Positions 16,206-59,008 of a stretch of 64,000 nucleotides of DNA are shown here, one piece after another. The stretch is from Candidatus Shapirobacteria bacterium (GTDB lineage Bacteria; Patescibacteriota; Microgenomatia; UBA12405). The number at the start of each line of letters is the position of its first letter. Positions within the stretch are counted from its first letter, which is position 1. The notes under the pieces were generated by a model that saw only the letters and a list, made by a program, of their open reading frames with translations, was not told the origin of the DNA and made no database searches. The stretch covers positions 583-64,582 of the forward strand of contig JBAZYN010000004.1 in assembly GCA_041659325.1 (NCBI GenBank), in the 5' to 3' direction. The position numbers and the translations under genes are program-made.

Positions 16206-16282
16206 TTCGATATCTGCAAACAAGGAACATCAGTCGGGGCAAATAAAAATACCCAAATAATACGAAAAATTTATTTCCATTT

Positions 16283-16293: not shown

Positions 16294-16327
16294 AGAGAAG
16301 GTATAGAGTTTTACGGTTACATTCTTT

Positions 16328-37032: not shown

Positions 37033-38071
37033 ATTAAAGTGGCTAATATTTTCCTTTCTTATTCTGCCCGCCAGTACCAATTACAAACTGGAGGGTTTTA
37101 GTCTTGGAAACGCCGGGGGAGAAGTAATAGGTTCATCAAGTTATGAAATGGTCGGAAGTGTGGGTGAACTTTCAAGTAACAGCTTGTCGGGGGAAAGTTA
37201 TGATTTGGGGGTGGGGCTGGCCTGGGTTCGGCAATCAAACGTCCCTCCTGCCCCGGCAATCACCAATCCCGATAATTATTACAACAAGCTTCATCTGGTA
37301 ATAAACCGGGGTGATAACCCTGCCGATACAAAATATGCAATCGCTATCAGTAGCGATGACTTTACCACTACCCAATATGTTAAAAACGATCACACAATCG
37401 GAGCCACTTTGGTTTTAACGGATTATCAGACATATACGGAATGGGGTGCCGCAACCGGTATCGATATTATTGGATTAACCCCCTCAACCACCTATTCAGT
37501 AAAAGTAAAAGCTATGCAGGGCAAGTTTACTGAAACTGATTTTGGGCCGTTGGCATCTGTGGCAACCGTAGACCTCGAGCTTACTTTCGATATTGACGTC
37601 TCGGCATCCGACACTGAAACGGCCTCACCCTACATCATTTCTTTGGGGGATTTAACCCCGGGAAGTGTTAAAAGTAGTACCGAAAAAATTTGGGTTGATA
37701 TAGGGACAAATGCTACAAATGGAGCAAGTGTTTTTGTTTATGGTCAAAATGGTGGGCTGTACAGTTTGTCAGCCGGGTCAACTATTGCCGCCATTAGCGG
37801 AAATTTGTCGGAACTTCCCAAAGGCTTTGGCTCCCAAGGGGTAGGGGCCACTCAAAATAGCGGCGGACCGATAAATATTTCCTCTCCTTACAATGTAAAC
37901 AATGATGTGGTTGGAATTACCGATACAACTATACGACCGATTTTTTTATCTGAAAACCCGGTTAATGCGGGAAGGGCTAGATTTTTGGTTAAGGCCAAAG
38001 TGGATATAACTACCCCGGCCGCCGATGACTACAGCGAAACTTTAACTGTAATCGCCGCGGCAAATTACTAG
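37004..38071 (+). CDS. Secreted surface-associated protein (paralogous C-terminal motif shared with the 38138 protein)
   Basis: N-terminal hydrophobic signal. The C-terminus ...AADDYSETLTVIAAANY matches ...AASDYSDTLTVVGAGTF. Confidence 0.5.
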   Translation: MAIKWWQNLKLKWLIFSFLILPASTNYKLEGFSLGNAGGEVIGSSSYEMVGSVGELSSNSLSGESYDLGVGLAWVRQSNVPPAPAITNPDNYYNKLHLVINRGDNPADTKYAIAISSDDFTTTQYVKNDHTIGATLVLTDYQTYTEWGAATGIDIIGLTPSTTYSVKVKAMQGKFTETDFGPLASVATVDLELTFDIDVSASDTETASPYIISLGDLTPGSVKSSTEKIWVDIGTNATNGASVFVYGQNGGLYSLSAGSTIAAISGNLSELPKGFGSQGVGATQNSGGPINISSPYNVNNDVVGITDTTIRPIFLSENPVNAGRARFLVKAKVDITTPAADDYSETLTVIAAANY

Positions 38072-38137
38072 CAACTATCGCTTGACAAGATAGTCTAAAT
38101 AGCTCATATTTATACTTAGAAACGAGTTTATCAAACA

Positions 38138-39157
38138 ATGAAAAAAATAAAAGGCATTTTTTCTAGATGGAGTATCAGCTTAATTACCGCGATAACAATC
38201 TTCCTTGCTTTCGCCGCCACCGAGGTTAACGCAGCAAGTTTTTCCCACGCCTCCCTTCGCTACGACCGGATTAAAGCCGAGACCCTTTCCAGCCTTCAGG
38301 TGGTAATTGTTCCCGCGACAGTTGCAACCGAAGACAGAGTGGTCATAACCTTTGGCTCTGCCACCGTCGGTACCACCAACGCCACTTCGGTCACCAATAT
38401 ACCTACTGGCTCTGTAGCTCTTCCCGGCACTCTTTCTGCCGTAAGTGCCGGTACCACTATCGTTATTACTGGCGTTACCGATCTCACAGTCGGTACCACC
38501 TATGCTTTTAACCTGACAATCGGTGTCTCCACCCCGGCCGCAGGAACTGCAAACGATATTATTTCTACCCGAAGTGATGCTACTACCGTAATAGATCAAA
38601 CCACTGTCGCTTCAAGATATATCACCAACGATCAGATAGTTATCAACGCCGTCGTTCCCCCCTCTTTTAATTTTGTCTTAAGTGCCGGCAACACCGATAC
38701 TTTTACTGCTAATTTAAGTGGCACCACAGAAGTATCTACTTATGGTAATACGGTAACGGTTACAACAAATGCTCCAAGGGGATGGATCGCCTGGGTAAAA
38801 AGCGCCAATCAGGGTTTAGTTTCCCTGTCCACCGGTATCACTATTGCCACTACTGGAACCGTAAATGGTAGCCCCGACACGCTGACTGCCGGTGCTAATG
38901 GCTATGTCCTGGACGCCGATTTAACTAGCGATAATGGTACGGGTACAGGCACCGTAACTATCGCTCCCGAATACAACGGCGCTTCCGCCAAGGCCGGAGG
39001 AACTTTATCCGCTATTTTTCAGCCCTTTGCTTCATGTAACGGAACCACCGCCGGTGACGTTATCACCCTGATAGAAAGAGCCACGGTAACCACTATTTTA
39101 GCCGCTGCTTCGGATTATTCTGATACTCTAACGGTTGTTGGTGCGGGGACTTTTTAG
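38138..39157 (+). CDS. Secreted Thr/Gly/Ala-rich surface protein (N-domain shared with the 34255 protein, C-motif shared with the 37004 protein)
   Basis: Signal peptide ending ATEVNA. An SLRYDRIKAETLS...ATEDRVVITFG N-domain. A conserved C-terminal DYSDTLTV motif. Confidence 0.55.
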   Translation: MKKIKGIFSRWSISLITAITIFLAFAATEVNAASFSHASLRYDRIKAETLSSLQVVIVPATVATEDRVVITFGSATVGTTNATSVTNIPTGSVALPGTLSAVSAGTTIVITGVTDLTVGTTYAFNLTIGVSTPAAGTANDIISTRSDATTVIDQTTVASRYITNDQIVINAVVPPSFNFVLSAGNTDTFTANLSGTTEVSTYGNTVTVTTNAPRGWIAWVKSANQGLVSLSTGITIATTGTVNGSPDTLTAGANGYVLDADLTSDNGTGTGTVTIAPEYNGASAKAGGTLSAIFQPFASCNGTTAGDVITLIERATVTTILAAASDYSDTLTVVGAGTF

Positions 39158-39185
39158 ATAAATCTCCGGGGATTAATATATAATC

Positions 39186-40256
39186 TTGGTATCAATGATC
39201 AGCCACCGTTTCTTGGCAAAATTTTTTTTTGGTCTCATATTAGCCCCCTTGTTATTTTCCGGTCCAAAAGTCATTTGGGCCCAAACTACTGCCACCAACA
39301 GCGAACTGAATTTAATCACCTCGCCCCTGCCGATAAATTTGGTAACCGAGCCCGGGGCTACGGTTTCTGCTGATCTGAAAATTCAAAATGGTGGAATTGT
39401 CACCGAACAGCTAAAAGTTGAAGTCCTAAAATTCAACGCCTACGGAGATGACGGATACCCAAGGCTGATAGATCGTCAACCCGGTGACTCATTTCTGGAT
39501 TGGGTATCATTTTCGGAAAATTCTTTTGAACTTGCTCCCAAACAGTGGAAAACCATCACGGCCACTTTTTCCATCCCCCCCGATGCTGCTTTTGGCTATT
39601 ACTATGCTATAACTTTTTCCCGAGCCGAAAACATCAAGGCCGATGGTGGGGGACAAACTTCCATTACCGGCGCTACTGCTACCCTCATTCTTTTAGAGGT
39701 TCGGGTCCCAAATGCCAAAAGAGAGGTCGAAGTCATGGAGTTGTCCACCGATAAGAAAATTTATGAATTTTTACCGGCCAACTTTCAGATAAAACTGAAA
39801 AATAAAGGTAACGTTCATCTTTCTCCCCGCGGAAATATTTTTATCGACCGAGGCAACCAGCGTGATGTTGCCATTTTGGAAATAAATCCCGAAAAAGGTA
39901 GTCTTTTACCCGATTCAAACCGCGTTTTCAGCACTAAATGGGCTGATGGTTTTCCTCTTTACCGGGAAAAAGTTAAGGACGGAAAAGTAGTCTTAAACAA
40001 AAAAAATGAAAGCGAGAAAGTACTCGAGTGGGATTTTAGCCAAACTCACAAATTACGTTGGGGAAAATTTTCAGCCAAAATGCTTATTGTTTACGACAAC
40101 GGAGAAAGGGACATCCCCATCGAAGGTATTGTCAGTTTTTGGGTAATTCCCTGGCGGCTTGTCAGCGCCGCCGGAGCCATAATTCTTTTAACCATCGTCG
40201 GTTTATGGTCAACTTTGGGAAAAATACTCATGAAGTTAATCAACAGAAAAAAATGA
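39186..40256 (+). CDS. C-terminally TM-anchored cell-surface protein, paralog A (DUF916/DUF3324-like architecture)
   Basis: Signal peptide, the motif KNKGNVHLSPRGNIFID, a C-terminal TM (AGAIILLTIVGLW) and a basic tail. There is an ATGA overlap with the next gene. Confidence 0.55.
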   Translation: MVSMISHRFLAKFFFGLILAPLLFSGPKVIWAQTTATNSELNLITSPLPINLVTEPGATVSADLKIQNGGIVTEQLKVEVLKFNAYGDDGYPRLIDRQPGDSFLDWVSFSENSFELAPKQWKTITATFSIPPDAAFGYYYAITFSRAENIKADGGGQTSITGATATLILLEVRVPNAKREVEVMELSTDKKIYEFLPANFQIKLKNKGNVHLSPRGNIFIDRGNQRDVAILEINPEKGSLLPDSNRVFSTKWADGFPLYREKVKDGKVVLNKKNESEKVLEWDFSQTHKLRWGKFSAKMLIVYDNGERDIPIEGIVSFWVIPWRLVSAAGAIILLTIVGLWSTLGKILMKLINRKK

Positions 40257-41194
40257 TCAGCGGCCAAAAATGTTTTGGTTTAATATTTTTTTTAGGCCTA
40301 ATTGTTTCGCTCCTTCCGATCCGAGTTTCAGGTCAGCAGAAAAAAATCCAAACCGGTATAAGTATTGCTCCGCCGTTTACGGAATTAGTTTTTGACAAGC
40401 TTGACAAAGAAAAAAACTTTATCTTAACTATCACCAACCATGGCCACAAATCCGAAGTGTTCAGGCTGTCGGTAGTCGACTTAGGCGGGCTTGAAGAATC
40501 AGCCGGAGTTCCGTTTTTGGGGACAAAAAACTCAGAATTAGAAAAAAAATATTCCTTAAGTTCGTGGATAATTTTGGGTAAAGACGCTCTGGTAGTCGAT
40601 CCCCAAAAAAAAGTTGACATAAAAATCACCATCCAAAACAAAGAATCCTTGTCCCCGGGAGGTCATTACGGCGCCGTAATTGTTAAACTGGATAATTCCG
40701 ACAAATCCGGTACCGATGTCGTGGAGGTGAATCAAAATTTTGCCTCTCTTATCTTTGTCAAAAAAATCGGTGGCGAGATATATGACTTAAAGCTTAACCA
40801 AACAACAATCCAAAATTCTTATCTAAAGATACCGGACACAATAGAGCTCAGATTTCAAAATTCCGGCAATATCCATGTCGTCCCCCGCGGTACGCTGGAA
40901 TTAAAAGATCCCTCCGGCCGTTTGATCGCAAAAGGGGTTATAAACAAGGCCTCTTCCATTATCCTGCCCGAGTCCTTCCGAACTTATCAAAACAGAATCA
41001 ATCAGTTAAAACCGGCCTGGTTACCGGGAAAATACCACCTTACGGTCAATTATCGATTTGATGGGTCAGACCAAATATCATCTCTGACAAAAGATTACCT
41101 ATACCTAGGTTGGCTGCCGTATGCCGTCTTCGGCGTCACTATCGTCACTTGGTTTTGGTTTTTAAGGTCCAAAAAATCTAAAAAACAAGAATAA
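40253..41194 (+). CDS. C-terminally TM-anchored cell-surface protein, paralog B
   Basis: Signal peptide MISGQKCFGLIFFLGLIVSLLP, the motif QNSGNIHVVPRGTLELKD, a C-terminal TM and the tail RSKKSKKQE. The ORF-track start at 40058 is inside the upstream gene. Confidence 0.55.
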   Translation: MISGQKCFGLIFFLGLIVSLLPIRVSGQQKKIQTGISIAPPFTELVFDKLDKEKNFILTITNHGHKSEVFRLSVVDLGGLEESAGVPFLGTKNSELEKKYSLSSWIILGKDALVVDPQKKVDIKITIQNKESLSPGGHYGAVIVKLDNSDKSGTDVVEVNQNFASLIFVKKIGGEIYDLKLNQTTIQNSYLKIPDTIELRFQNSGNIHVVPRGTLELKDPSGRLIAKGVINKASSIILPESFRTYQNRINQLKPAWLPGKYHLTVNYRFDGSDQISSLTKDYLYLGWLPYAVFGVTIVTWFWFLRSKKSKKQE

Positions 41195-41312
41195 AAAAAT
41201 CGCTAACTATCGCCATATTTATAATATTTGAATTTGATATCTAAAGATATCTTTTAAATAGACATCGTTTTCACTATAGTACACAGTAAGGGCTGTTATA
41301 TCGGGCCTAGTC

Positions 41313-42626
41313 TTGACGTATATGGGAAAGTTTATTATAAAAATCTGGTCAATCTTCTGTTTAATAATTTTTTGGGTATATTTCTGTCTCTCACCTGTTT
41401 CCGCGGCAATTTACGAAAGGGTGAATTTTCAGGGTAAAGTAGTCAATAAATCCGTCGGCGAAACAGACGGCACCAATGTCCCCGACGGCGATTACGATTT
41501 TGTTTTCACCATTTACCCGGCCCTTAGCACCGGCTCTTCTCTTTGGACCGAGACCTGGGATAGTGGTACAGCTCAGGTAGCAGTTACTAGCGGAGTATTT
41601 AACGTTAATTTAGGCACCCAACTGACCTTTCCCGCCAATCTTTTTGAAAGTGATAGTTTATTTTTGGCCATAAATTTTAACGCCGATGGCGACATGACTC
41701 CCAGGATTCGGCTCACTTCTGTTCCCTATGCTTTTAGTGCCGGCAAAGTTGCCGGCTTAACCATAGATAGCATTGGAGTTACCCTTGACCAAAGTTTAGC
41801 TACTACCAATTCACCCACTTTTTCGGGTCTAAATATTGGCACCTCTCTGTCGGTTGCGGCCAATGTAAACGTCGGCGGCACCTTAATTTTTTCCGCTACC
41901 GGCGTAAATATCGACGCCGTCACCGCCCAAGGGTTAATTTTTCAGGGGAGGAATTCTTCCTCTTTTAACACCACTAGCGGTGACATTACTCTCAATCCTG
42001 CCGGTTCAGTCATAATCGGTACCGGCACCAGTACTTTTACCTTCAACCCTCTTTCCGGTCCGCTCTATTCAGGCTCGGCCCGACCTTCAAAAACAATCAG
42101 AATTTCACCGGAATACCCCGGAGCTTCAATGACTGCCGATGGCTCCACCGATATTGGTGGTACCATGACTTCCGACAACACCCTAAACGCCGGTGGCATC
42201 GGCTGGAAAAATTATTATCAGTGGTCATCCGGCAATGCTGCCTTACAGGACTATTCGGTTTTGGCCCGAGTTGCCCTTCCCTCTGATTTTGATACCTGGG
42301 AAACCGGCTCTTGTCCGGGAGCTGCCTGTGCTTTTGAAATAGAATTCCAAACCGGGGTCGGCACCACCGACGATAATTATATTTCTGTCGCCGTCAACAA
42401 TAACTCCGACACTCCCGGCACCGCCGTCTGTTCAATTGGCTCAACCGCCGCTACCGCCTGGACCTTAACTGGTTGCCCTGAAGCCACCTTAAATGATGGG
42501 TCTTCTTCAGAGTGGGATGCGGCCGGAGAAGCGGCCGTTGTTCGTATCAAATTGGCGGCAAAAAGTACCGAAAATGCCTTATCTCGGGTAGGGGACATCA
42601 TTTTAAGGTACAAGGCAAAATTCTAA
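41313..42626 (+). CDS. Secreted hypothetical surface protein
   Basis: N-terminal signal and a beta-rich Thr/Gly/Ser composition. A TAATG stop/start overlap with the giant gene. Confidence 0.5.
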   Translation: MTYMGKFIIKIWSIFCLIIFWVYFCLSPVSAAIYERVNFQGKVVNKSVGETDGTNVPDGDYDFVFTIYPALSTGSSLWTETWDSGTAQVAVTSGVFNVNLGTQLTFPANLFESDSLFLAINFNADGDMTPRIRLTSVPYAFSAGKVAGLTIDSIGVTLDQSLATTNSPTFSGLNIGTSLSVAANVNVGGTLIFSATGVNIDAVTAQGLIFQGRNSSSFNTTSGDITLNPAGSVIIGTGTSTFTFNPLSGPLYSGSARPSKTIRISPEYPGASMTADGSTDIGGTMTSDNTLNAGGIGWKNYYQWSSGNAALQDYSVLARVALPSDFDTWETGSCPGAACAFEIEFQTGVGTTDDNYISVAVNNNSDTPGTAVCSIGSTAATAWTLTGCPEATLNDGSSSEWDAAGEAAVVRIKLAAKSTENALSRVGDIILRYKAKF

Positions 42627-45600
42627 TGAAAATTTTTTCGCCCCTCCCTAAGTTAAAAAAAACCCTCTCGCTATTTCTCTTGACCGGCCTGGTATTTTTT
42701 TCCTTTTTATCTACCCCCACCCTTTTGGCCCAGGATGCGGCTCCTGCTATATCCGTAGACCCCGCTGTATCAATCTCTCCACCTTCCCCAGAGTCCTATT
42801 CTGATTCACCCGAAGCCAACAACTCAGCCAGACTTCGTCCTAGCTTTAAACTGGAAACTTACGACACCAATCCGGTTTTCAGTAAATCAAAACCTGAGTT
42901 TAAACTAGTCTCCGGCACCAAATTTAAACCAAGAATCAAGGTGTACAATAATTCAAAACAGGAAATCGATATTGAGCTCGTTGAAAAAGTCGACAAGGGC
43001 GATGTTGTTTATAGCTTCAATCAAGCCACAGAAATTCCCCCCGGTAAATATACAATCACATTTCAAGATGATCTCGGCGGCGAAATATCGAAAGATTTTT
43101 ACTGGGGAGTTTTGGCCATCAATTTCAACAAATCCGTTTATAACCCGCTGGAAAACGGTTACATTTCTCTTGCCGTTTTAGACGAAACCGGCGACATGGT
43201 CTGTGATGCCAAGTTAGCCCTGATTGTCGAAGAACCAGATGGTTCAGTCGAAGAGTTAACCACCGATGATGGCCGCATCAAGGTCAACCCCGAATGTCAG
43301 GTTCATGGCTTTACGGAAAAGCCGGATTATGAAACCGAATATGCTTTTAGTGAAAATCCGGGCACATACAAATTTCACCTTGTCGCCGAAACCAAAAATG
43401 GTTCTTATAGTATTACCGATCAGGTTCAGGTAGCCGAAAACTTACCTATCGAAGTCGACCGGGTTATGGCTACCCGCATTTATCCCCCCCACCCTTATAC
43501 TGCCACTATTAATCTAAAGGCAAATGAAGATTTTATCGGAATAGTCACGGAAACCGTCCCCTCAAGTTTCATTATCACCAAAGCCGCCAATACCGAAATT
43601 TTACCCTACAAAACCATAGTTGAAGACAAAAACTCAAAGACAAAAAAAATTACCTGGAATTTAGACCTAAAACCAGGCGAAGATGTCACTATCGGTTATC
43701 GATACGATATCCCCGATATCTCGCCCGAATTTTATCTGGTTGGGCCGATAAAGTTTACCGATTATAGCGGTACTGTTGATTTTTTTACCGAAACCCGTCA
43801 ATGGCAATTGGCGGCCGATGCCGTAGCTCCTGTAAAAATCCGGCAAGAAATTAATATTATTAACGGTTTAGTTACTGCCGCTGGGGTTGATGCCGCCATA
43901 GTAAATCTGGATACCGCCAAATATAACAGTGCCACTTATTATTTTGAAGTAATTGCCAAGGTCAGTGCCGGCACCTTAACCGTCAACCTCAGTACCGGAA
44001 ACACCAATACCGTTGGTATCGGTATCAGTGATACTAGCTTTGTCAGAGTTCGGTCGGCTTTTACCCCCGAAAGCGGTTCTTTTGACTACCGACTTAATTT
44101 AGTAAACGGGACCTCGCCACAGGTGAAAGCCGCCAGAATCATTATTTTACAAAGCGCCACTACTATTACTGCCACTCAAACCCAGATTGAAATCGGCAAT
44201 TTGGAAATCGGTTTATCCATGGCGACGACGGCTCCCCTTACCAGCCCAAAATATTGGAAATATGATTCAGCTTTGTGGGATGGGACAAAAACATTTGATA
44301 TCAGCGTTTCATATAAAGCCGGCGTGGGGGTCACGGCCGGTTCCCAAACTTTTACAGTAGCAGGTATCAATACTTTTACCCCACCTGGTGGCATAACCTC
44401 AGTCAAGGTCGAATGTTGGGGCGGCGGCGGCGCCGGTGGAAGTTCCAACACCACCACCGACGGTTGCGGTGGCGGTGGCGGTGGTGCCTATTCCAATAAA
44501 TTAAATGTGGGTGTCACAGCTGGAATTGGCTATACCGCTTTTGTCGGAGTCGGCGGTACCTATAGATCTCAAGCCAAAGGAGGCGATGGCGCCGCCAGCT
44601 ATTTTCGAAATAGCGTCGGCGTGACTGTTGTCTCGGCCGCCGGAGGAATCGGCGGCACTTCTCAAGCCAGTAGCAATCCGGGAGCCGGTGGAGCTGGCGG
44701 TAACTCCACCGTTGGTGTTGGAGATACCAAATGGAGCGGAGGAACAGGTGGTAGAGGCTATAATGCTTCGGCAGGGCAGGGAGGTCCGGGTGGTAGCTCA
44801 GCCGGAATTGGAACCACGGGCCGGTCTGGTCCGGATCCCTGGTCAACCAGAGTTGCCAGTGCCGGCCCTACTGGTAGTGGTATCGGCGGTAGTGGTGGCC
44901 CGGCTGGTAACAGCGGTGCAGCCCCGGCCAGTGGAAATGGCGGCGGCGGCGGCGGCTCCGGCGATGTGGCAACCAGTGTCGGTGGAAACGGCGCCGGTGG
45001 GAAAGTAGTAGTTACTTGGGCCGCAATAGATAACGCAGTTTCAATTTATCTTCAGGAAGACAACGGTTCTTTTGCCGGCTGGACAAATGTCGTCACTGTT
45101 TTAAGCGGTGGTACCGCCACCGTCCCGACTTCGGTGGGCATTACAAACTTTACCCCTACCACCGGTAGAAATTATCGACTCGTTGCCAATACTGGTCTCA
45201 GTCCTTTTGATATTTATAATGCCAAAATTATTGTTAATCAAACCAGTGCTACTACTATTGACAAGCTAGTTCCCCAATATTTGTTGCTAAATACAAAATC
45301 AACCACCACCGGCAGTGCTTTAGGTTATCAAAGTTTATGGACCACCGACGAATGGGGCCGGACTACCAATACCTATCTGCATGCCTTTGACTCCATCGGT
45401 GGCGGCACCACCGCCACTGTTAAGCTCGTTGATATTGATGCCGGAAATGCTGAATTAACCAATTCCGCCATTGGCGGGACAAATCAAGTAATTAGTAATG
45501 GCATAACAATGCCCACTTCCGGTCATCAAATAGATACCTGGCTGACCGCCGCCGGAACCGAAGTCGACGCTTCGAGAATTTTGGTTCAAGTTGACGTAAC

Positions 45601-48600
45601 GGCAGTTCAAAATCCGACCGTTGTTCTCAACAGTCTCGACAATGGCGCCACCACTACTGATACCACCCCGACTTTGGATTTTACCGGCACTAGTGCCTAC
45701 GGAGATAGTGTCAGATATAACATTCAGATAGCCACCAACGACCTATTTTCTTCTAGCATAATCACTCAAACCTCGGTTCTGTCTCAAGGCACCGAGACGG
45801 ACGCCAGTTCGTACGATACCGCCAGTATTTCCCCCGGTGCTAATAAATTAGTCCTTCTAGCCGTGGCCTCCCGGGTGGCTGGCGGCGGAAACAATACCCC
45901 TACCGCCAGTGGTGTTGGCATGAGCTGGGATTTAGTCACCACAGTTCAGGAACCCGGCAGCTGGAATAGGATTAGTCTTCTTCGAGCCATGAGTCCGTCG
46001 CCTTCTTCCGGGGCTATCACCATTTCTTTTGGTGGTCAAACTCAAACAGCTGTAAACTGGCAAATTTCCGAGTTTTCAAATGTTGATACTTCGGGGACAA
46101 ACGGTGCTAGCGCCATCGGTCAGTCACAAACCAACACCGGTGCTTCCGTTACTAGTCTCACCGTTACCTTGGGTGCTTTTCAAAGTACCAATAACGCCAC
46201 CTATGGGGCTATGATCTCTGAGGTCGCCTCTCCCATCAACCAGGGTACTGGATTTACTGAAGTTTATGATTTAAGTGTTACCGATAGCGCTCTGGAAACA
46301 GAGTGGAAAGATAGCAACGATACTTCGGTGGATTGGTCTTTTACTCAGGGCAGGGTCGGCGGAATTGCCGTCGAAATAAAAGCGGCTCCATCTGCCCTCG
46401 ATAAAGTTTCCGGTACCGATGTCGGTTTTTCCGGATCTCCGGATAATACAGATCCTTTTACATCCGCCCAAGCCGTAAATTATACCGTTGAGGAGGGAGA
46501 TAGCTTGGCGGTAGGCACTTATTACTGGCGAGTCAGAGGTATAGATCCAGATGGGAGCAATGCTTACGGCTCGTGGAGTGATACCCGTAATTTTGTGGTA
46601 AGCATGGCTGCCAATGTGACTATTTCGGGAAATATCTATACCACCGAAACCGCCACTGCCTACAACTGTTCATCCACCAACCTAACAGTTCGGGCCATAG
46701 TCGAGGGAGCCGGAGTCGGTACTACCGGTATTTGTACCTCCGGTGGTGGGGCATTTCTTATCCAAAATATCACCGTTGGTGATACCGGTCATGTAATTAC
46801 CTTATATTTAGACGGAGAATCAGAGAAAGCCACCTCCATTACCAAAGTTGCCAGCACCTCTATAGGATTTACCCTTCCCCTTTATCAAAACCGGGTATAT
46901 CTTAGTCACCAAAATGACGGGCCGATTACCAATGCAGATATCGATAAATATGATAGCGCCAACGATGCCGATATCCAATATACCTCAAACGGTGTCGGTC
47001 TCACCGTTACCCCGGGCTCCAAAATTGTTATCGCCCTTGGAAAAACCTATACTCCCGGCGGAAGTATTGACACCCCCTCAATCGGCATCGGTGGAACTTT
47101 CAACCCGGAGTCGAACACTGTTAATCTAACTGGAAGCGGCAGCAGCATCACCTGTACCGATGCCCCGGGGACAGTCATGCCTCTATGTAATAGTGGTACT
47201 TTTAACCAGTCAACCTCAACCATCAATTACAACGGGACTTCCGCTTCTGCCATCGCCGCTCTTACCTTCAATAATCTGGGTGTGGGTATTTCCTCCGAGG
47301 CGGGAGTCGGCACTACCTATACCTTTACCGGTAACGTCACAGTCGGCGGTATCTTCTCTATCGGAAATATCTTGTCATCAAATATCGATGTTGTAAATGC
47401 TTCCTCCCACACTCTTACTCTAACTCAGGCAGATACTCCGCTAAATGCTACTCCCAAGGGTGCTCTTGCTCCGGGAAGCTCGACTGTCGTTTACACTGCC
47501 TCCGCAGATACCAGCGTTGCGACTGTTGACTATTACAACCTTTCTCTGGCCCCTGCCTCAGGCACACCCACTTATACTCTTTTAAACGTTTGGGAATATA
47601 GAAGACCAATAGCAATTACCAATGCCTCGGGCGGGGACCTAACCGACTTTCAGGTTTCCTTTACTTTGGACACCACCGACAGTACTAGATTTCAGCCGGA
47701 TTGTGATGATATAAGAATCACCGACTCAAGTGGTATTACCATTCTTCCTCATTGGATCGAAGAAAACAATCCCGGTTGTGGCAATGCCTCTACCAAAATT
47801 TGGACCAAAGTTCCCTCTATTCCCACTGCCGGCACAACCATCTATGTTTATTACGGCAATCCCATTGCTTCATCATCGCAAAACGGTACGAGTGTTTTTG
47901 AGTTTTTCGACGATTTTAGTGGCGATAGCCTAGACACACAAAAATGGACAAAAGTTAATGGCTCAACTCCGGTTCTTGCCTCCGGCACCTTGGCCATTAC
48001 CGCCACCGCCGACCCGGGTAAATTAATTGCCTCTGCCGGCCCCAATGGCGACAACTACATTTTAAAAGCCAGATTTATGGTTACCGGCGGCTCTGCCGAC
48101 GATGAAAGGTTGGGTCTAAGCGTAAAAACCAATACCTCAAGCGGAGCTGGCTACAATCTGGTTTTTAGGGGCTTTACCAACCTGTCAACGGTTCAGTTTT
48201 TACATGACGCAGTTGAGTGGGGCAGCGCAGACACTGTCAATTGGGCCAAAGACACATATTATACCGAAGAAATTTATCATGACGGAACAAATGTCAAAGG
48301 TCGTTTTAACGACGGTTCCTGGTACAGTTGGCCCAGAAGCGGAATATCCGGCTATTTGGCGATAAATTTTGCTAGTTTTAACGGTACAACTAGTATCTGG
48401 GATTATGCTGTTATTAGGAAAGCGGCTTCAACTGAACCCTCCTCCTCCGTCCAGGCAGAACAGGGTGTAACCAACACTGATATATTAACCGTCCACAATG
48501 ATTTTTCTACTTCAGGCGCCGGTACCGTAACTGTCAATGTAGAGACAAACAACAGTGCCACCCTGGATATTAATGGGGATTTTACTCTGGCTTCCGGCGA

Positions 48601-51600
48601 TACCTTTCTGGCCCCTCCCACTACGTCTATAGCCGGCGGCTATACCAACAATGGTACCTTTACCGCCAATTCTGGAAAAGTTACTTTTGACGGAACCGGA
48701 AGCAATACCCTATCTGGTTATATGAATGTCGGATCTGGCTCAACCTCTCCTTTCTATAAAGTGGTCTTTAGCGGCATCGGTGGCAGTTGGACCATTGCCG
48801 ACCCCATAAAAATCGGAGCTACCAATGCTACCGATACCCTATTAATAAACGCCGGAGTTGTTACCTTGGGCAATGGAAACGGTGATGATATGGAGGTCGA
48901 TGGAAAAATGAATATCGGTTCTACTGTCGGTCTGGCAATTTTTCAAACCATGGATGGTCTTGCCCAGGGCAGTGTCATCAATCTTGATATCAACAGCAAT
49001 ACCGCTCCGTTTAATTGTACTAACTGTTTGGTTCAAGTAGGCACAGCCGACAACACCGCCCCCCAGGGGACTTTTGTCATCAATGAAAACACCAACCTTC
49101 GATTAAATTCTTTCTCCAGCATTCAGTCGGGTCTGGATATTTATGCCTCGGGGAAAATAACTATTCGGGGTCTTCAGTCAGACACCGGCGCTGATAGCGG
49201 CACCGACACTACTTCCGCCGCCACCAGAGAAAGCAAAGTGTGTGTTGTCAAACCCGGCTGGGAAAACGACAGCCACAATAATAAAAACCTAAGAATCACC
49301 TCCGGCCTTGCCTTTGGGAAAATATACACTATCTCGGACACTATTACCAACGATTCCGATTGTGCCTCCGATACTGATGAGTCGCTGACTATCAACGATA
49401 CTTCCGTTCCCTCCGGGGCTAGCACTGCCGTCGTAAGCTCAATCACCACCGTCTTATCGCAAAGATGGGTTTGTTCCAATGCCACCACATATATTTCCGC
49501 GGATAATAAAGAGATAGGCAGATATCTACACGATCTGTCGGGTGTCACCGGTTATTACAAGATTGTCGACTCCACCAATAATGATGCTACCAACTGTTCG
49601 GGTAATGATAGGTTCAGGATTATGGCTGATCCTGCTGCTGAATTTGCCAGTCTGCAAACCAGTGATACTTTTAAAATTGTCGATGGTATTAGGTCCGATG
49701 ACACCTTTGAAATAATTGATTATGCCTCTATTACGGCCCAAAATGGTGTCGCCTGTAACTCATCGTTCAACGGCTATATCCTGGGAAGAAACCGTTCAGA
49801 AGTAGATATCCAATATTCAGATATTTGCAATATGGGAGCTTCCGATGAATATAAAACCGGAATCATGCTTGGCTACTCTTCGGCGGGCACCGACGGCTCT
49901 CTGCAAAACGAAGGGTTTGCAATTTCCAAGTCAAGGATAAGAAATGGTCACAATGGAATTGTTTTTTATTATGCGGACAATAATTCCGGAGCCAAAGGTA
50001 TCTCCGACAATTATATTTCAGGACATGCATCTTTCGGAATTGACTTTTACTACGGTGCCGACAACAATAGTGTTACTTCAAACACTGTTTGTGGCAATTT
50101 TCAAAACATTTATTTTAGGAATAATTCAAATAACAACACCGTATCTTCTAATATTATTTGTGAAGCCACCACCTTTGCCGGAATTGTTTTATATGATTCG
50201 CTAAGCGGTAATATCGTCTCTTCAAATACTATTTACAACAACGCCCAACATGGTATCTATACTGGCACTAACGCCATAGACAACACCTTTTCATCAAACA
50301 CCGTCTTCGGCAACCAATTAAGTGGAATTACTCTTGACAGTGCCCACATGACCAAAGTATCGGGCAACACGGTAAACAACTCTCAATATCATGGGATATA
50401 TATAATCGGAGGGTCAAAGGGCAATATCATTTCGTCAAACAACGTTTTTGGTCAAGACGCTGGTATTTATCTTTATAATTCTGCCAACAACAATCTTTTG
50501 TACACCAATAATTCATACAACAATGCCTACGGTTTACAATCGGGTTCTAACTCGACAAACAATGTATTTTTCGGAAATGATTATTACTCTAATACTAGCT
50601 ATGGTAGCTATAATAATGACGGTTTTAGTAATAATGTTTTCTATAATGATTCGTTTTATGGCAATATATTCGGCTGGATTGACAATGGTGCCTCAAATTT
50701 AAATAACATCCTTATAAACAATAGTTTCGGAGTCGGAACAGAAAATGGTTTCTACGATATCTATCAAATAGGATCTGCTCCCCATTCTACGCATTTATAT
50801 AGCTCGACTGTTAATTCCACCGTTGAGGCCGACGGAATTATCTACCCCGGCTCATCAATTATCTCCCGCTCTCACGATGGAGTAGCCGGTGCTACCAAAA
50901 TCTGGGGAGAATATTCCACTTCATCAAATAACTCCGAAACGCCACAGGATGAAGGGTTAGAAAGATATAATTATGCCGATTCCTCCTGGCCCGACTCAAT
51001 TACCGACCCGGGGTTTTCCGGTATCGGAACCTCAGACACCGATCTAAATCTTGGCTTCGCCGGAGGTACCTTAGGCGGGGGGACTTCAGCCGCCTTTGTC
51101 TACCGGGTTTACTGCACTGTCACCAACTGTGTCACCTCCCCCAACTCGTGGGGGGTTGAAAGAGATGGGATAGGTTTGGGTACCTCCGCCTCTAGCGGCG
51201 TTGGCTATACCGACCCTGGCACCAATATCTCGTTTAAAATCGATGATTCCGGAACAGATTTTGCCCTGGGTGATACCTACACCTTTGTTGCCTTCAGGGG
51301 TAGTACTGACACCAATACTCAAAAAACTATAACAATGGCCCAGGATGGGGATTTAATAAATGTTGGTGCCGGTACTACTCTCCGGGCAATCGGGGTCGGC
51401 GGTAGCCACACCTTGATCACCCGTGGTGGATCGGGCGGCTACCACATTAATGTCGCCGGAACCCTTGATGCTAGCTACTATACTTTAAGTTATTTAGGAG
51501 GAACCGACGGAAATTTAGGGCTTGATTTACAAAGTGGTTCTCTGATTACTAATTTAGCCAACGGTGTCTTTGATAATTTCCAAGATGTCGGATCATCGGA

Positions 51601-51934
51601 CACTTATATTAGAGTTCACAGTGATCTGATTGGGGTAGGAAGTCCGACCAAGACTTTTAGTGATTTAACCTTTACTCAAAACGGTTCCGGTGCTCCGGAA
51701 TTTACCGTCACCGAATCCGGAGGCAGCTCCCCGGCCGACGATCGTTACTGGCAGTTTGAAAATTCTGTCTGTAGTTCTTGGGCTTCCTGTGAAGATTCCG
51801 ACCTCGAACAAAACACCAACAGCGGTGGTAGCATCCGTTGGGATGCCATTATTCCTACCAGCCCTATTCTTGATCAGCTTATGCGCCACGGCCAGTGGTT
51901 TTTTGGCGGTCTCAAACAGCCGTTTACTTTTTAA
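42626..51934 (+). CDS. Giant secreted surface protein (3103 aa): Ig-like regions, Gly-rich segment, DUF2341-like domain, LamG/concanavalin-like domain, PbH1 parallel beta-helix repeats
   Basis: Signal peptide MKIFSPLPKLKKTLSLFLLTGLVFFSFLSTPTLLAQD. DUF2341-like YRRPIAITNASGG...DIRITD...LPHWIEE...IWTKVP...TIYVYYGN at about 47597-47890. A Gly-rich run at 44400-45000. N-rich beta-helix repeats at about 49930-50720. The ORF-track start at 42512 overlaps the upstream gene. Confidence 0.75.
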   Translation: MKIFSPLPKLKKTLSLFLLTGLVFFSFLSTPTLLAQDAAPAISVDPAVSISPPSPESYSDSPEANNSARLRPSFKLETYDTNPVFSKSKPEFKLVSGTKFKPRIKVYNNSKQEIDIELVEKVDKGDVVYSFNQATEIPPGKYTITFQDDLGGEISKDFYWGVLAINFNKSVYNPLENGYISLAVLDETGDMVCDAKLALIVEEPDGSVEELTTDDGRIKVNPECQVHGFTEKPDYETEYAFSENPGTYKFHLVAETKNGSYSITDQVQVAENLPIEVDRVMATRIYPPHPYTATINLKANEDFIGIVTETVPSSFIITKAANTEILPYKTIVEDKNSKTKKITWNLDLKPGEDVTIGYRYDIPDISPEFYLVGPIKFTDYSGTVDFFTETRQWQLAADAVAPVKIRQEINIINGLVTAAGVDAAIVNLDTAKYNSATYYFEVIAKVSAGTLTVNLSTGNTNTVGIGISDTSFVRVRSAFTPESGSFDYRLNLVNGTSPQVKAARIIILQSATTITATQTQIEIGNLEIGLSMATTAPLTSPKYWKYDSALWDGTKTFDISVSYKAGVGVTAGSQTFTVAGINTFTPPGGITSVKVECWGGGGAGGSSNTTTDGCGGGGGGAYSNKLNVGVTAGIGYTAFVGVGGTYRSQAKGGDGAASYFRNSVGVTVVSAAGGIGGTSQASSNPGAGGAGGNSTVGVGDTKWSGGTGGRGYNASAGQGGPGGSSAGIGTTGRSGPDPWSTRVASAGPTGSGIGGSGGPAGNSGAAPASGNGGGGGGSGDVATSVGGNGAGGKVVVTWAAIDNAVSIYLQEDNGSFAGWTNVVTVLSGGTATVPTSVGITNFTPTTGRNYRLVANTGLSPFDIYNAKIIVNQTSATTIDKLVPQYLLLNTKSTTTGSALGYQSLWTTDEWGRTTNTYLHAFDSIGGGTTATVKLVDIDAGNAELTNSAIGGTNQVISNGITMPTSGHQIDTWLTAAGTEVDASRILVQVDVTAVQNPTVVLNSLDNGATTTDTTPTLDFTGTSAYGDSVRYNIQIATNDLFSSSIITQTSVLSQGTETDASSYDTASISPGANKLVLLAVASRVAGGGNNTPTASGVGMSWDLVTTVQEPGSWNRISLLRAMSPSPSSGAITISFGGQTQTAVNWQISEFSNVDTSGTNGASAIGQSQTNTGASVTSLTVTLGAFQSTNNATYGAMISEVASPINQGTGFTEVYDLSVTDSALETEWKDSNDTSVDWSFTQGRVGGIAVEIKAAPSALDKVSGTDVGFSGSPDNTDPFTSAQAVNYTVEEGDSLAVGTYYWRVRGIDPDGSNAYGSWSDTRNFVVSMAANVTISGNIYTTETATAYNCSSTNLTVRAIVEGAGVGTTGICTSGGGAFLIQNITVGDTGHVITLYLDGESEKATSITKVASTSIGFTLPLYQNRVYLSHQNDGPITNADIDKYDSANDADIQYTSNGVGLTVTPGSKIVIALGKTYTPGGSIDTPSIGIGGTFNPESNTVNLTGSGSSITCTDAPGTVMPLCNSGTFNQSTSTINYNGTSASAIAALTFNNLGVGISSEAGVGTTYTFTGNVTVGGIFSIGNILSSNIDVVNASSHTLTLTQADTPLNATPKGALAPGSSTVVYTASADTSVATVDYYNLSLAPASGTPTYTLLNVWEYRRPIAITNASGGDLTDFQVSFTLDTTDSTRFQPDCDDIRITDSSGITILPHWIEENNPGCGNASTKIWTKVPSIPTAGTTIYVYYGNPIASSSQNGTSVFEFFDDFSGDSLDTQKWTKVNGSTPVLASGTLAITATADPGKLIASAGPNGDNYILKARFMVTGGSADDERLGLSVKTNTSSGAGYNLVFRGFTNLSTVQFLHDAVEWGSADTVNWAKDTYYTEEIYHDGTNVKGRFNDGSWYSWPRSGISGYLAINFASFNGTTSIWDYAVIRKAASTEPSSSVQAEQGVTNTDILTVHNDFSTSGAGTVTVNVETNNSATLDINGDFTLASGDTFLAPPTTSIAGGYTNNGTFTANSGKVTFDGTGSNTLSGYMNVGSGSTSPFYKVVFSGIGGSWTIADPIKIGATNATDTLLINAGVVTLGNGNGDDMEVDGKMNIGSTVGLAIFQTMDGLAQGSVINLDINSNTAPFNCTNCLVQVGTADNTAPQGTFVINENTNLRLNSFSSIQSGLDIYASGKITIRGLQSDTGADSGTDTTSAATRESKVCVVKPGWENDSHNNKNLRITSGLAFGKIYTISDTITNDSDCASDTDESLTINDTSVPSGASTAVVSSITTVLSQRWVCSNATTYISADNKEIGRYLHDLSGVTGYYKIVDSTNNDATNCSGNDRFRIMADPAAEFASLQTSDTFKIVDGIRSDDTFEIIDYASITAQNGVACNSSFNGYILGRNRSEVDIQYSDICNMGASDEYKTGIMLGYSSAGTDGSLQNEGFAISKSRIRNGHNGIVFYYADNNSGAKGISDNYISGHASFGIDFYYGADNNSVTSNTVCGNFQNIYFRNNSNNNTVSSNIICEATTFAGIVLYDSLSGNIVSSNTIYNNAQHGIYTGTNAIDNTFSSNTVFGNQLSGITLDSAHMTKVSGNTVNNSQYHGIYIIGGSKGNIISSNNVFGQDAGIYLYNSANNNLLYTNNSYNNAYGLQSGSNSTNNVFFGNDYYSNTSYGSYNNDGFSNNVFYNDSFYGNIFGWIDNGASNLNNILINNSFGVGTENGFYDIYQIGSAPHSTHLYSSTVNSTVEADGIIYPGSSIISRSHDGVAGATKIWGEYSTSSNNSETPQDEGLERYNYADSSWPDSITDPGFSGIGTSDTDLNLGFAGGTLGGGTSAAFVYRVYCTVTNCVTSPNSWGVERDGIGLGTSASSGVGYTDPGTNISFKIDDSGTDFALGDTYTFVAFRGSTDTNTQKTITMAQDGDLINVGAGTTLRAIGVGGSHTLITRGGSGGYHINVAGTLDASYYTLSYLGGTDGNLGLDLQSGSLITNLANGVFDNFQDVGSSDTYIRVHSDLIGVGSPTKTFSDLTFTQNGSGAPEFTVTESGGSSPADDRYWQFENSVCSSWASCEDSDLEQNTNSGGSIRWDAIIPTSPILDQLMRHGQWFFGGLKQPFTF

Positions 51935-51969: not shown

Positions 51970-52656
51970 ATGATGAATAAAATTGTTCCTCTGGTAGCAA
52001 AAATAATCGGAATATTGGTATTTATCGGATCAATCGTCGGTATGGTCTATTTTTACAACAAGTCAAAAAATGTAGAAATCCAAAACCCCGGAGAAATCGA
52101 GGAAATGGTGAAAACCCTCTCCGTATTTATGGAACTTCCCGATGAGATCCCGACTCTCGCCACCGTTACCGATACCACAAAATTAGAAAGTGAAACATTT
52201 TTCAAAAATGCCCAAAACGGGGACAAAGTATTGATTTTCCCTAACTCTACAAAAGCAATTCTTTATCGCCCTTCTACCAAAAAAGTTATTGAAGTCTCAA
52301 GCGTTATGGTTTCCGGCAGTCAGCCTGCGGCACCTCAACCGACCATTAGCCCCACTTCGCTTACCAGTTCCTCAAACCTTACCATTGCCCTGTACAATGG
52401 TACCGAGGAAGCCGGATTGGCAAAAAGTCTGGACAAAGATATTTTTAGTAAAACTCAAAATTACAAGGTAACAATTATTGCTGATGCCCAAAAAAACAGT
52501 TACGAGGATACCCTGGTCATCGACATCAGCGGTAAAAATCAGGAAATCGCCCAAGCTCTTGCCCAAAGTCTTTCCGCTGTTTTAGGCCCTCTCCCCTTAG
52601 GCGAACAAAAACCAGATACCGATATTTTGATAATTATCGGGAAAAATCACCCCTAA
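51970..52656 (+). CDS. Membrane-anchored LytR_C (LytR/CpsA/Psr C-terminal) domain protein
   Basis: N-terminal TM, a Pro-rich linker, and LTIALYNGTEEAGLAKSL...TLVIDISGKN typical of LytR_C. Confidence 0.55.
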   Translation: MMNKIVPLVAKIIGILVFIGSIVGMVYFYNKSKNVEIQNPGEIEEMVKTLSVFMELPDEIPTLATVTDTTKLESETFFKNAQNGDKVLIFPNSTKAILYRPSTKKVIEVSSVMVSGSQPAAPQPTISPTSLTSSSNLTIALYNGTEEAGLAKSLDKDIFSKTQNYKVTIIADAQKNSYEDTLVIDISGKNQEIAQALAQSLSAVLGPLPLGEQKPDTDILIIIGKNHP

Positions 52657-52666
52657 TCTTGTCTAC

Positions 52667-53218
52667 ATGAAAATCCACAAAATTAGCCGTCTTGTTTCAA
52701 TCAGCGGAATAATCATATTAGCGGTAGCTTTATTTATTTTTGTCATTTCAAAGCCCTCTATCGGGAAAATCAACCCACCTCAAACCGACCACACGACCGA
52801 ACTGCTTCCCACCGAAAAGTGGTATACCGACGACAATATCAATTTTACCTATGGTGCCAAATATGAATTAAGAGCCGTAAAAGCCGGCTCCGGCAATCAG
52901 CCAGAGGTTATCAACTTACTTGGTACAAAAGGGGACTCATCCATGTGGACTATTACCATCAAAAAAATTGATTATACCGATTTATCCGAAGTCTCCGGAG
53001 TCCAGCTTCGTAGAATTAAATCCGAGGATTATCTTGAAAAAAATCTGGAAATCGATCAAACTAGCGGATTATTTTTTAAAAAGATAAGCAGTAGTGAATT
53101 TACCGCCCTGGCCATAAAAAACGGCAAACTTATCACCATGGCTCTTACGGTAAACTCCAATGATACCGGAAAAGAGGCGGAGTTTCTGAGTTTTATTAAA
53201 ACTCTGAGAATCAATTAA
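52667..53218 (+). CDS. Membrane-anchored hypothetical protein
   Basis: N-terminal TM helix. No recognised domain. Confidence 0.4.
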   Translation: MKIHKISRLVSISGIIILAVALFIFVISKPSIGKINPPQTDHTTELLPTEKWYTDDNINFTYGAKYELRAVKAGSGNQPEVINLLGTKGDSSMWTITIKKIDYTDLSEVSGVQLRRIKSEDYLEKNLEIDQTSGLFFKKISSSEFTALAIKNGKLITMALTVNSNDTGKEAEFLSFIKTLRIN

Positions 53219-58939: not shown

Positions 58940-59008
58940 TCAAAGCCCCCCGTCGTCTTTCTCTGTGATAAAATTCACTTGTACCAGATATTAGTTAAAA
59001 ATCTAACA

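Follow-up and report, generated by a model that had tools for sequence, protein, structure and literature searches.

A giant mosaic exported protein with DUF2341, jelly-roll and beta-helix domains, encoded in a conserved gene cluster of a Candidatus Shapirobacteria bacterium

A giant gene and its reading frame

The 64000-base stretch of DNA analysed here (the window) comes from a CPR bacterium, a member of the Shapirobacteria in the Microgenomates group; an earlier note made from the sequence alone had described giant DUF2341-LamG proteins as typical of CPR bacteria and archaea. On its forward (+) strand, on which all the features described below lie, a gene at 42626..51934 takes up 9309 of the 64000 bases (14.5%, previously put at about 15%) and encodes a protein of 3102 aa plus stop, identical to NCBI MFA5828849.1. 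The frame is uninterrupted, and the length given in the earlier note as 3103 aa is that of 3102 residues plus the stop, i.e. 3103 codons. An ORF scan and translation placed the stop-free frame at 42512-51934, with the ATG at 42626 opening the protein as MKIFSPL...; this ATG shares bases with the stop codon of the gene before it (TTCTAATGAAA; TAATG), and an AAGG-rich stretch lies just 5' of it.

The great length of the gene, its origin in a metagenome-assembled genome and an internal low-complexity Gly tract might suggest an artefact of assembly, a fusion of ORFs or a pseudogene in decay, an explanation that we regard as extremely improbable. An independent Logan assembly (contig SRR18595301_36091) carries the gene with identical DNA, and no internal stop occurs in its 9.3 kb. 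Tandem repetition at the DNA level is almost absent, the only such repeat being trivial (CGGTGG x4). Several curated domains are intact, a conserved tag lies exactly before the stop, and homologues of 2-3.5 kaa, collinear with the protein over its N-terminus, middle and C-terminus, favour a single gene over fused ORFs. Folds were assigned to about half of the protein, the remainder being aa 400-575, 800-1650 and 1940-2380.

Export signal and family-defining N-terminal module

The protein starts with a Sec-type signal peptide (aa 1-36; 42626..42733) ending ...TPTLLAQ/DAAP, recognized from the sequence and a Kyte-Doolittle scan in which it was the sole hydrophobic segment; we infer cleavage after TPTLLAQ. 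Motif and hydropathy scans of the giant protein found no LPXTG, NPXTG or PEP motif, nor any hydrophobic stretch at the C-terminus, and a sortase or exosortase substrate was rejected because both a sorting motif and a C-terminal TM helix are missing. The motif scan likewise returned no TM, RTX or prepilin motif; a T1SS RTX giant adhesin was rejected on the presence of the N-terminal signal and the absence of RTX repeats.

Behind the signal peptide lies a module of three Ig/macroglobulin-like beta-sandwiches (aa 95-405; 42908..43840) with an invariant Cys pair (MVCDA...NPEC). This N-module was found at 454 loci in CPR and DPANN genomes, and aa 100-400 form the sole region common to the homologues, aligning in about 90 of 96, whereas the DUF2341-ConA region aligns in only about 4-7 of 96; it is therefore the N-module that places the protein in its family. 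In many homologues a Peptidase_M23 domain, absent from the giant protein, is inserted after about aa 335. Pfam MG2 matches to the module are weak and under the gathering threshold, and its MG-like fold matches reach a Z level equalled by many generic Ig-like domains. Weak MG2 matches are the likeness to the alpha-2-macroglobulin/complement/TEP superfamily, from which the giant protein differs in having only three sandwiches and no thioester, TED or bait region; membership of alpha-2-macroglobulin/TEP was rejected for want of the thioester (CGEQ) and TED domain and because MG2 is sub-threshold.

Modules of the variable middle

Between its ends the protein is a mosaic in which modules are exchanged even between close relatives. 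The GC-rich Gly tract of the earlier note was recovered as a glycine-rich domain (aa 578-798; 44357..45019), Gly making up 32-36% of aa 601-800 and GC reaching 0.59-0.65 against about 0.44 for the window. It matches Pfam Gly_rich_2 (PF21722; E 7e-13, 49.5 bits vs a cutoff of 24.3, model positions 2-225 of 226) and, in a PHROG search, phrog_863 'tail fiber assembly' (E 3e-16), which links it to a family of phage tail proteins. A further module of about 320 aa (aa 1331-1650; 46616..47575), delimited by homologue alignment and without a Pfam match, is common to about 25 homologues, with up to seven copies in P0010, and is a probable stalk or spacer.

The DUF2341 beta-sandwich (aa 1658-1757; 47597..47896) was defined by Pfam, homologue comparison and motif positions, all of which fall where they had been noted (YRRPIAITN at 47597, IYVYYGNP at 47840, and FEFFDDFSG at 47897 and WTKVNG at 47945 in the following segment). 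PF10102 confirms it at aa 1692-1776 (47699-47953; E 8e-28, about 97.2 bits vs 23.4) with a nearly full-length match (model 1-83 of 84) that also takes in the opening strand of the domain behind it. Makarova et al. 2016 (PMC4858521) assigned DUF2341 proteins to archaeal T4P loci and suggested that they act as tip adhesins, and in one homologue, P0113, DUF2341 is joined to a prepilin N-methylation motif; the giant protein might thus be a PilY1-like type IV pilus tip adhesin. This seems very unlikely: no T4P gene (PilB/C/M/T, prepilin) turned up in the gene calls for the surrounding +-10 kb or in those of the window's larger ORFs that were scanned, the signal is of the classical Sec type and not a class III signal peptide, and DUF2341 is here one among many swappable modules. 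The archaeal proteins of T4P loci (arCOG03508, PMC4858521) differ in this respect, the giant gene lying outside such a locus.

The segment after DUF2341, termed concanavalin/LamG-like in the earlier note, is a concanavalin-type jelly roll (aa 1758-1935; 47897..48430) resembling GH16/DUF1080; the concanavalin half of that description is right, whilst the LamG half is not shown. A profile of the domain matched the GH16 porphyranase 4ATE in the PDB (E 8.7e-5) across its whole length (FFDDF...DW..VRK), and the equivalent region of P0111 and P0126 matches PF06439 (3-keto-disaccharide hydrolase, DUF1080; E 4e-16 and 2.5e-5), which assigns it, at the level of sequence profiles, to the concanavalin A-like lectin/glucanase superfamily. 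No Pfam LamG/Laminin_G model (PF13385, PF02210, PF00054) matched aa 1650-1990 at E<=5, and the Laminin_G_3 matches of homologues P0106 and P0111 belong to a separate domain further downstream that the giant protein does not have. The GH16 catalytic motif E-x-D-x(x)-E is absent from aa 1758-1935, its sole match in the protein being at aa 113, outside the domain. GH16 glycoside hydrolase membership was rejected on this basis, and because the ExDxxE motif is missing the jelly roll is probably a lectin module.

The 22-24-residue, Asn-rich repeats previously read as a right-handed parallel beta-helix are confirmed both by profiles and by periodicity (PbH1, period 23-24 aa; 49778..50785). Beta_helix, NosD and TIGR03804 match at aa 2385-2674 (49778-50647), with E 1e-23 and 84.2 bits vs a cutoff of 25.9 for Pfam Beta_helix (PF13229), E 9e-17 for Pfam NosD and 26.6 bits vs 19.45, over four stretches, for TIGR03804; BLOSUM autocorrelation peaks at lags 23-24 and 47, and Asn reaches up to 27% in aa 2601-2700. 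The NosD copper-maturation family (TIGR04247) was rejected (16.5 bits vs a cutoff of 300), and the Pfam NosD match reflects shared beta-helix repeats only. A conserved C-terminal domain (aa ~2900-3060; 51323..51805), predicted to adopt a second beta-helix-like fold, is common to P0002, P0004, P0007, P0008, P0021, P0022, P0026 and P0030.

These beta-helices could be catalytic, in which case the protein would be mainly an enzyme, a polysaccharide depolymerase (lyase, hydrolase or epimerase) displayed on the cell surface that cuts host capsule or wall glycans for penetration or feeding, in the way of phage tailspikes. The Beta_helix/NosD repeats are of the CASH type, the beta-helix has a weak sequence match to the AlgG C5-epimerase (E 0.009), and family members with the same N-module and C-terminal element carry a true hydrolase, M23. 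Against this, neither the AlgG DPHD catalytic motif nor, as noted, the GH16 motif in the jelly roll was found, no CAZy-type Pfam or NCBIfam family matched the protein over the cut-off, and Foldseek gave no significant match. We consider a mainly enzymatic role unlikely.

A conserved C-terminal tag

The protein ends in an independent terminal element of 24 residues, SPILDQLMRHGQWFFGGLKQPFTF-COOH (51860..51931), with the consensus LDQLMRHGxWF..G..QPFTF-COOH directly before the stop. No Pfam or NCBIfam model covers this tag, which was found in at least 359 protein clusters and nearly always at the exact C-terminus. Most tag-bearing proteins have signal peptides and many are M23 peptidoglycan peptidases; 8 of 10 mid-size members consist of MG2, M23 and the tag. 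The tag is predicted to be disordered (pLDDT <40), which fits a docking peptide. The giant protein is thus a mosaic with constant ends, the N-module and the tag, and a variable middle.

A conserved gene cluster

Translational coupling ties the giant gene into a conserved cluster, where it is preceded by six genes for exported proteins. The first encodes a 925-aa protein with CarboxypepD_reg and C-terminal membrane segments (34255..37032), the N-terminal region of which resembles that of the 339-aa protein. Two proteins of 355 and 339 aa follow (37004..39157), sharing a C-terminal domain that ends ...TLTVIAAANY and ...TLTVVGAGTF, respectively; about 35 of 97 giant homologues also end in this domain, which is almost mutually exclusive with the tag. 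Next come proteins of 353 and 329 aa (39195..41194), both combining two Ig-like regions with a TM helix at the C-terminus, whose homologues adjoin giant genes in other CPR genomes. The sixth is a 434-aa protein (41322..42626), kept in locus L002, whose stop overlaps the giant gene's ATG. Two downstream genes (51970..53218), encoding a 228-aa protein with a LytR_C domain and a 183-aa protein, are syntenic with L002, and the six upstream and two downstream genes are all present in GCA_018062705.1 (Shapirobacteria).

The layout recalls the WxL clusters of Firmicutes, which comprise small WxL, large WxL and WxLIP (DUF916-DUF3324-TM) proteins (PMC10599100). Common to both are small exported proteins consisting largely of one shared domain, giant relatives carrying that domain C-terminally behind host-binding modules, and partners that combine a pair of Ig-like domains with a C-terminal TM helix. 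The 353- and 329-aa proteins have WxLIP-like size and the C-terminal TM, their only Pfam matches being weak ones to fn3_5; their homologues L003:7010 and L004:18631 score 22.5 and 18.9 bits against WxLIP_PGBD (cutoff 27.3), sub-threshold matches with E 1e-4 and 2e-3. WxLIP-like neighbours occur in L003 and L004, and also within +-6 kb in 20 of 80 further loci. In contrast to WxL clusters, there are no W-x-L motifs here and the giant protein ends in the MRHGxWF tag rather than the shared domain. Among the window's own proteins no WxL or WxLIP Pfam match was found, and a large WxL protein was rejected because neither the giant nor the small cluster proteins match PF13731 and the C-terminus is the tag. 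For now the resemblance is an analogy, drawn from layout and sub-threshold neighbour matches.

Proposed function

We lean, by a little, towards an exported, cell-surface fibre-like adhesin forming the distal, glycan-recognising part of the multi-gene surface cluster. The earlier note had left the function of such proteins unspecified; the modules, the constant ends and the cluster narrow it to a putative envelope-tethered, glycan-binding fibre. After export the protein would be attached to the envelope non-covalently, its constant ends being bound by the two WxLIP-like partners with their TM anchors and/or by the 355- and 339-aa proteins whose domain replaces the tag in relatives. The middle modules would reach out from the cell and bind polysaccharide on the surface of a host or partner cell, in the manner of phage tail fibres, tailspikes and lectins, and might possibly cut glycans too; binding to another cell is inferred here from domain types only. 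That sister proteins with the same constant ends carry the M23 endopeptidase suggests that the family as a whole acts on cell envelopes.

The protein could instead serve the cell's own envelope, as an S-layer-like coat or a wall-remodelling scaffold, and not as a host-binding adhesin. It is Thr/Ser/Gly/Asn-rich and Cys-poor, like many S-layer and sheath proteins, its relatives' M23 peptidases are of a type used in cell division, its neighbours include the LytR_C protein and also a FemAB-like acyltransferase, and the family is very widespread. However, the extreme mosaicism of the middle is typical of proteins under diversifying selection for external ligands and would be unusual in core structural ones, the protein contains modules of the lectin and tail-fibre types, and clustering at 90% identity gave no other cluster member. 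We hold this role to be improbable, though less so than that of a pilus tip.

Known systems offer several parallels to the favoured adhesin. Phage tail fibres, tailspikes and capsule depolymerases share the right-handed beta-helix, the PHROG-related Gly-rich domain and a modular receptor-binding architecture; here, however, the gene is cellular and lies in a chromosomal surface-protein operon, the product has a Sec signal, no phage genes were found near it and, unlike in tailspikes and depolymerases, no catalytic residues were identified. The giant adhesins of Gram-negative and Gram-positive bacteria (SiiE, LapA/MpIBP, Ebh and that of Mobiluncus) and the SPEARE proteins of DPANN are likewise very large, modular, beta-rich surface proteins with an attachment role thought or shown, but the giant protein has neither the dozens of near-identical Ig repeats, T1SS signal, RTX or LPXTG of the former nor the protease or nuclease domains of SPEARE. 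Secreted ConA/LamG proteins of DPANN are thought to mediate surface interactions (PMC7443923).

A bolder reading, which we put forward tentatively and consider less probable than the adhesin itself, is that the protein is one payload variant of an undescribed CPR/DPANN surface-display system. Its constant chassis would be the MG-like N-module plus a docking element (the 24-residue tag or the domain of the 355-aa type), its interchangeable payloads lectins, beta-helices, tail-fibre-like domains and M23 peptidoglycan hydrolases, and the complex would be kept at the envelope by the WxLIP-like partners with TM anchors. If so, the system would be a remote equivalent of the WxL clusters of Firmicutes and a candidate for the apparatus with which episymbionts attach, and the tag a new sorting or anchoring signal.

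The conserved ends and gene cluster are undescribed, and the excerpted text of PMC11809585 and PMC4858521 on DUF2341 proteins does not mention the N-module or tag, which together mark the family of the giant protein and set it apart from the proteins treated there. In kind the protein is ordinary. Large Patescibacteria proteins commonly carry DUF2341, with a role in adhesion or host interaction proposed (PMC11809585), so that the earlier view of giant DUF2341 proteins as usual in CPR was already in the literature. The likeness to these DUF2341/FhaB proteins extends to the CPR host, a multi-thousand-residue exported protein, DUF2341 above the cut-off and the proposed role; the giant protein differs in its 3102 aa, short of the >4000 aa of the proteins counted there, and in the absence of an FhaB domain. 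Its sequence is already recorded at NCBI (MFA5828849.1), JGI and Logan, and annotated at JGI with the product name "parallel beta-helix repeat protein".

The giant gene and its record

The longest open frame of the window runs from 42512 to 51934 (+) and, from the ATG at 42626, encodes 3102 residues followed by a stop; the giant ORF reported in the earlier note is real, but its length of 3103 aa included the stop codon. Each motif that had been quoted from the translation was found where it had been placed. The TAA of the upstream gene and the ATG of the giant gene overlap (TTCTAATGAAA). That the ORF might be an assembly artefact is barely credible and was rejected, since the DNA of the gene is identical in an independent Logan assembly contig and almost free of tandem repeats, internal stops are absent, the N-terminus, middle and C-terminus are all collinear with homologues, and a conserved tag is placed exactly ahead of the stop.

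The NCBI entry MFA5828849.1 is titled 'MAG: DUF2341 domain-containing protein [Candidatus Shapirobacteria bacterium]', whereas JGI names the product 'parallel beta-helix repeat protein'; within the Patescibacteria/CPR, Shapirobacteria are part of the Microgenomates group. As DUF2341 and the beta-helix are already named in this public annotation, the domain calls by themselves bring nothing new, and DUF2341 proteins of giant size have already been discussed in print for Patescibacteria (PMC11809585).

Conserved ends of the giant protein

When the whole giant protein was used as query, aa 100-400 formed the only aligned part in approximately 90 of the 96 homologues found, the DUF2341/ConA region being aligned in just ~4-7 of the 96 and the whole C-terminal third being common to four homologues (P0002, P0004, P0007 and P0008). 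This N-terminal module (aa 95-405) was modelled from a 32-sequence alignment as three Ig/macroglobulin-like beta-sandwiches (pLDDT 89.5), with an invariant Cys pair. Its matches to Pfam MG2 are below threshold and the giant protein contains no thioester motif, on which grounds an A2M-type thioester protein was rejected; a sequence search of the module against the PDB gave no meaningful match. In many homologues (e.g. P0003, P0004, P0006, P0027 and P0028; P0151-P0212) a Peptidase_M23 domain is inserted after ~aa 335, at the boundary of the second and third sandwiches, and the giant protein itself is without M23.

A scan of species-representative genomes found the N-terminal module encoded at 454 loci, the best 80 of which lie in Woesebacteria, Moranbacteria, WWE3, Levybacteria, Saccharibacteria, Pacebacteria, Wirthbacteria and other CPR lineages, with further loci in Woesearchaeota and Nanoarchaeota. 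Some close relatives with CPR-type neighbours (loci L006, L008, L011, L014 and others) come from MAGs titled 'uncultured Gammaproteobacteria', 'Methanosarcinales' or 'Clostridia'; such titles outside CPR/DPANN are probably unreliable taxonomic labels and not true occurrences.

The opposite end of the protein is formed by a tag of 24 residues (aa 3079-3102, 51860-51931; SPILDQLMRHGQWFFGGLKQPFTF), which is the extreme C-terminus in 19 of 97 homologues and follows the pattern ...P(T)LDQLMRHGxWF(N)SSGVxQPFTF-COOH, with a second flavour ending ...Q.F[WY]W[AV][NDK]. In the homologue P0007 a 365-residue insertion separates the tag from the preceding conserved domain, which identifies the tag as an independent terminal element. 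A word-index search for homologues that started from the tag alignment returned five candidates and a single match, so that an exhaustive HMMER profile search of 1.84 billion representatives was needed instead; this recovered at least 359 clusters (359 at E<=1e-3, 30 at E<=1e-10), and among the best 150 all but a few matches run up to the final residue or stop no more than four short of it. Tag-bearing proteins range from 300 to 3200 aa, and 72 of the 122 such sequences with a Met start carry an N-terminal hydrophobic signal. The commonest are 750-970 aa long and combine an MG2-like module, M23 and the tag (with a signal peptide in addition in eight of 10 mid-size members), and many of the clusters are M23 peptidoglycan hydrolases. 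The tag lies outside all Pfam and NCBIfam models, and its string was not found in the literature searched. The tag has no hydrophobic or TM helix and is thus not a sortase- or exosortase-type signal, and a reading of the giant protein as a sortase substrate was rejected for this reason. Its pLDDT of <40 in the AF2 model is as expected for a peptide that would fold only on a partner.

The gene cluster

The giant gene is the seventh in a co-directional run of genes for exported proteins (34255-51934). The upstream genes (34255-42626, +) encode a 925-aa protein with a CarboxypepD_reg domain, 355- and 339-aa proteins with a common C-terminal domain (37004-39157), 353- and 329-aa proteins that each have a C-terminal TM helix, and a 434-aa protein whose stop overlaps the start of the giant gene; two further cluster genes lie downstream (51970-53218). 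Another Shapirobacteria genome (L002, GCA_018062705.1) keeps the six upstream and two downstream genes around the tag-bearing homologue P0009, in syntenic blocks at 1619-10001 and 15362-16539 with pairwise identities of 33-66%. In more distant CPR genomes (L003 and L004) homologues of the TM-anchored pair adjoin giant genes, and they occur within 6 kb on either side of an N-module gene in at least 20 of 80 further loci, a lower bound since the giant gene occupies most of the downstream flank. Promoter and terminator scanning found terminator-like sites at chance level (23 against 22.8 expected), so operon boundaries cannot be set from it.

The domain that ends the 355- and 339-aa proteins is homologous to the last ~230 residues of about 35 of the 97 giant homologues (hhalign probability 96.6-98.5%), and a direct BLAST match to one of these, P0060 (aa 2336-2564), shows 38% identity. 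This ending and the tag are nearly mutually exclusive, both scoring in one protein. The shared ending connects the small proteins with the giant one by a link of the Rosetta-stone type. None of the upstream proteins matched Pfam at E<=1e-3, weak Ig/fn3 matches appearing only at E<=5, and none matched PHROGs, leaving a tail-fibre-like identity of the 434-aa protein unsupported. Profiles of the shared C-terminal domain and of the TM-anchored partners found no match in the PDB. The first ~120 residues of the 925-aa protein (34255-34650) are 39% identical to the N-terminal ~120 residues of the 339-aa protein (38138-38530), so the cluster includes an internally duplicated module.

The layout resembles that of the WxL/WxLIP clusters of Firmicutes, whose logic is described in PMC10599100: by analogy, small proteins consisting mostly of one domain (here 355 and 339 aa) accompany giants bearing the same domain C-terminally, behind binding modules, and a TM-anchored partner with two Ig domains (here 353 and 329 aa). 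Two TM-anchored neighbours in other genomes gave sub-threshold matches to WxLIP_PGBD (DUF916; E 1e-4 and 2e-3), but the window's own proteins have no Pfam WxL or WxLIP match, so homology to WxL systems is not established.

Neighbours of the giant genes in L003 (7851-9826) and L004 (19589-21487) include a Big_6 plus dockerin/EF-hand protein and a cohesin-like protein, which hints at cohesin-dockerin assembly of a surface complex. Directly downstream of the giant gene in the window lie genes for a LytR_C-domain protein (51970-52656) and a FemAB-like Acetyltransf_6 protein (53244-54137), both cell-wall-related.

The middle modules

DUF2341 (aa 1692-1776) is confirmed, matching Pfam far over threshold (97 bits, E 8e-28), and the W.YRr.I.ItN strand that the earlier note had included in it is conserved among homologues and sits directly ahead of the Pfam model. 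The beta-helix is confirmed by TIGR03804 and two Pfam models, Beta_helix and NosD, with a repeat period of 23-24 residues by autocorrelation and local Asn of up to 27%; membership of the NosD family was rejected (16.5 bits against 300), and a weak AlgG match was all that a sequence search of the PDB returned. The Gly tract (32-36% Gly, GC 0.59-0.65) is more than low complexity, as it gives a full-model match to Pfam Gly_rich_2 and a match to a phage tail PHROG (phrog_863, E 3e-16); the domain had no match in a sequence search of the PDB, and the Gly_rich_2 accession was not mentioned in the literature searched. An RTX adhesin reading of the giant protein was rejected.

The segment called LamG-like (aa 1758-1935) retains its fold class, a concanavalin-type jelly roll, but not its label. 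Laminin_G did not match it even at E<=5, and the DUF2341-ConA segment, searched as sequence alone, found nothing in the PDB; a profile of 25 homologues, by contrast, matched a GH16 beta-porphyranase from end to end (E 8.7e-5), and the equivalent region of the homologues P0111 and P0126 matches PF06439 (3-keto-disaccharide hydrolase, DUF1080), their true Laminin_G_3 matches falling in an extra downstream domain that the giant protein lacks. The GH16 ExDxxE motif is missing from aa 1758-1935, and the segment is most likely a lectin module rather than a hydrolase. For the giant protein as a whole, the main rival to a binding function is a catalytic depolymerase, which we consider unlikely.

P0113, a protein of 459 aa, joins a homologue of the DUF2341-ConA segment to a prepilin N-terminal methylation motif, so DUF2341 modules are elsewhere mounted on type IV pilin-like proteins too. 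A type IV pilus tip adhesin is very improbable for the giant protein and was rejected for the present locus, pilus genes being absent within +-10 kb.

Proposed role

For CPR bacteria and DPANN archaea, whose cells live attached to others, the mechanism of attachment is to our knowledge largely unknown, and giant surface proteins, the usual suspects, are handled as unrelated 'hypothetical' mosaics. The giant protein is such a mosaic: its modules are of glycan-binding and fibre type, and its constant ends are conserved. It carries a Sec signal for export and has no covalent or TM anchor, and translational coupling ties its gene to a conserved cluster whose products are exported. We lean, with some reserve, towards a protein held at the envelope by cluster partners, which would retain it via its ends, and whose Gly-rich, ConA-like and beta-helix modules would project outwards to bind, and possibly cut, the surface polysaccharide of another cell. 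A structural role in the cell's own envelope seems to us rather improbable. The favoured role is in line with published proposals of surface interactions for secreted ConA/LamG proteins of DPANN archaea (PMC7443923) and of adhesion or host interaction for large DUF2341-bearing proteins of Patescibacteria (PMC11809585).

The useful results are the common N-terminal module, the discrete C-terminal tag and the recurrent cluster with TM-anchored partners. The MG-like CPR/DPANN chassis, the MRHGxWF tag and the WxL-like cluster, none of which the earlier note had claimed and each of which has computational support only, look undescribed. That they form one surface display system spanning CPR and DPANN, with a new docking tag, is possible but doubtful. 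Should the ends prove to be docking devices, they would offer experimental handles and allow the attachment repertoire of uncultured episymbionts to be catalogued; otherwise the giant gene is an ordinary representative of a class already known.

Elsewhere in the window, three genes encode other large envelope-type proteins: a 917-aa DUF11 protein (12507-15260, -), a 1083-aa protein with two polysaccharide deacetylase domains and CBM_4_9 (20665-23916, +), and a 939-aa protein with CARDB and CarboxypepD_reg repeats (58979-61798, +).
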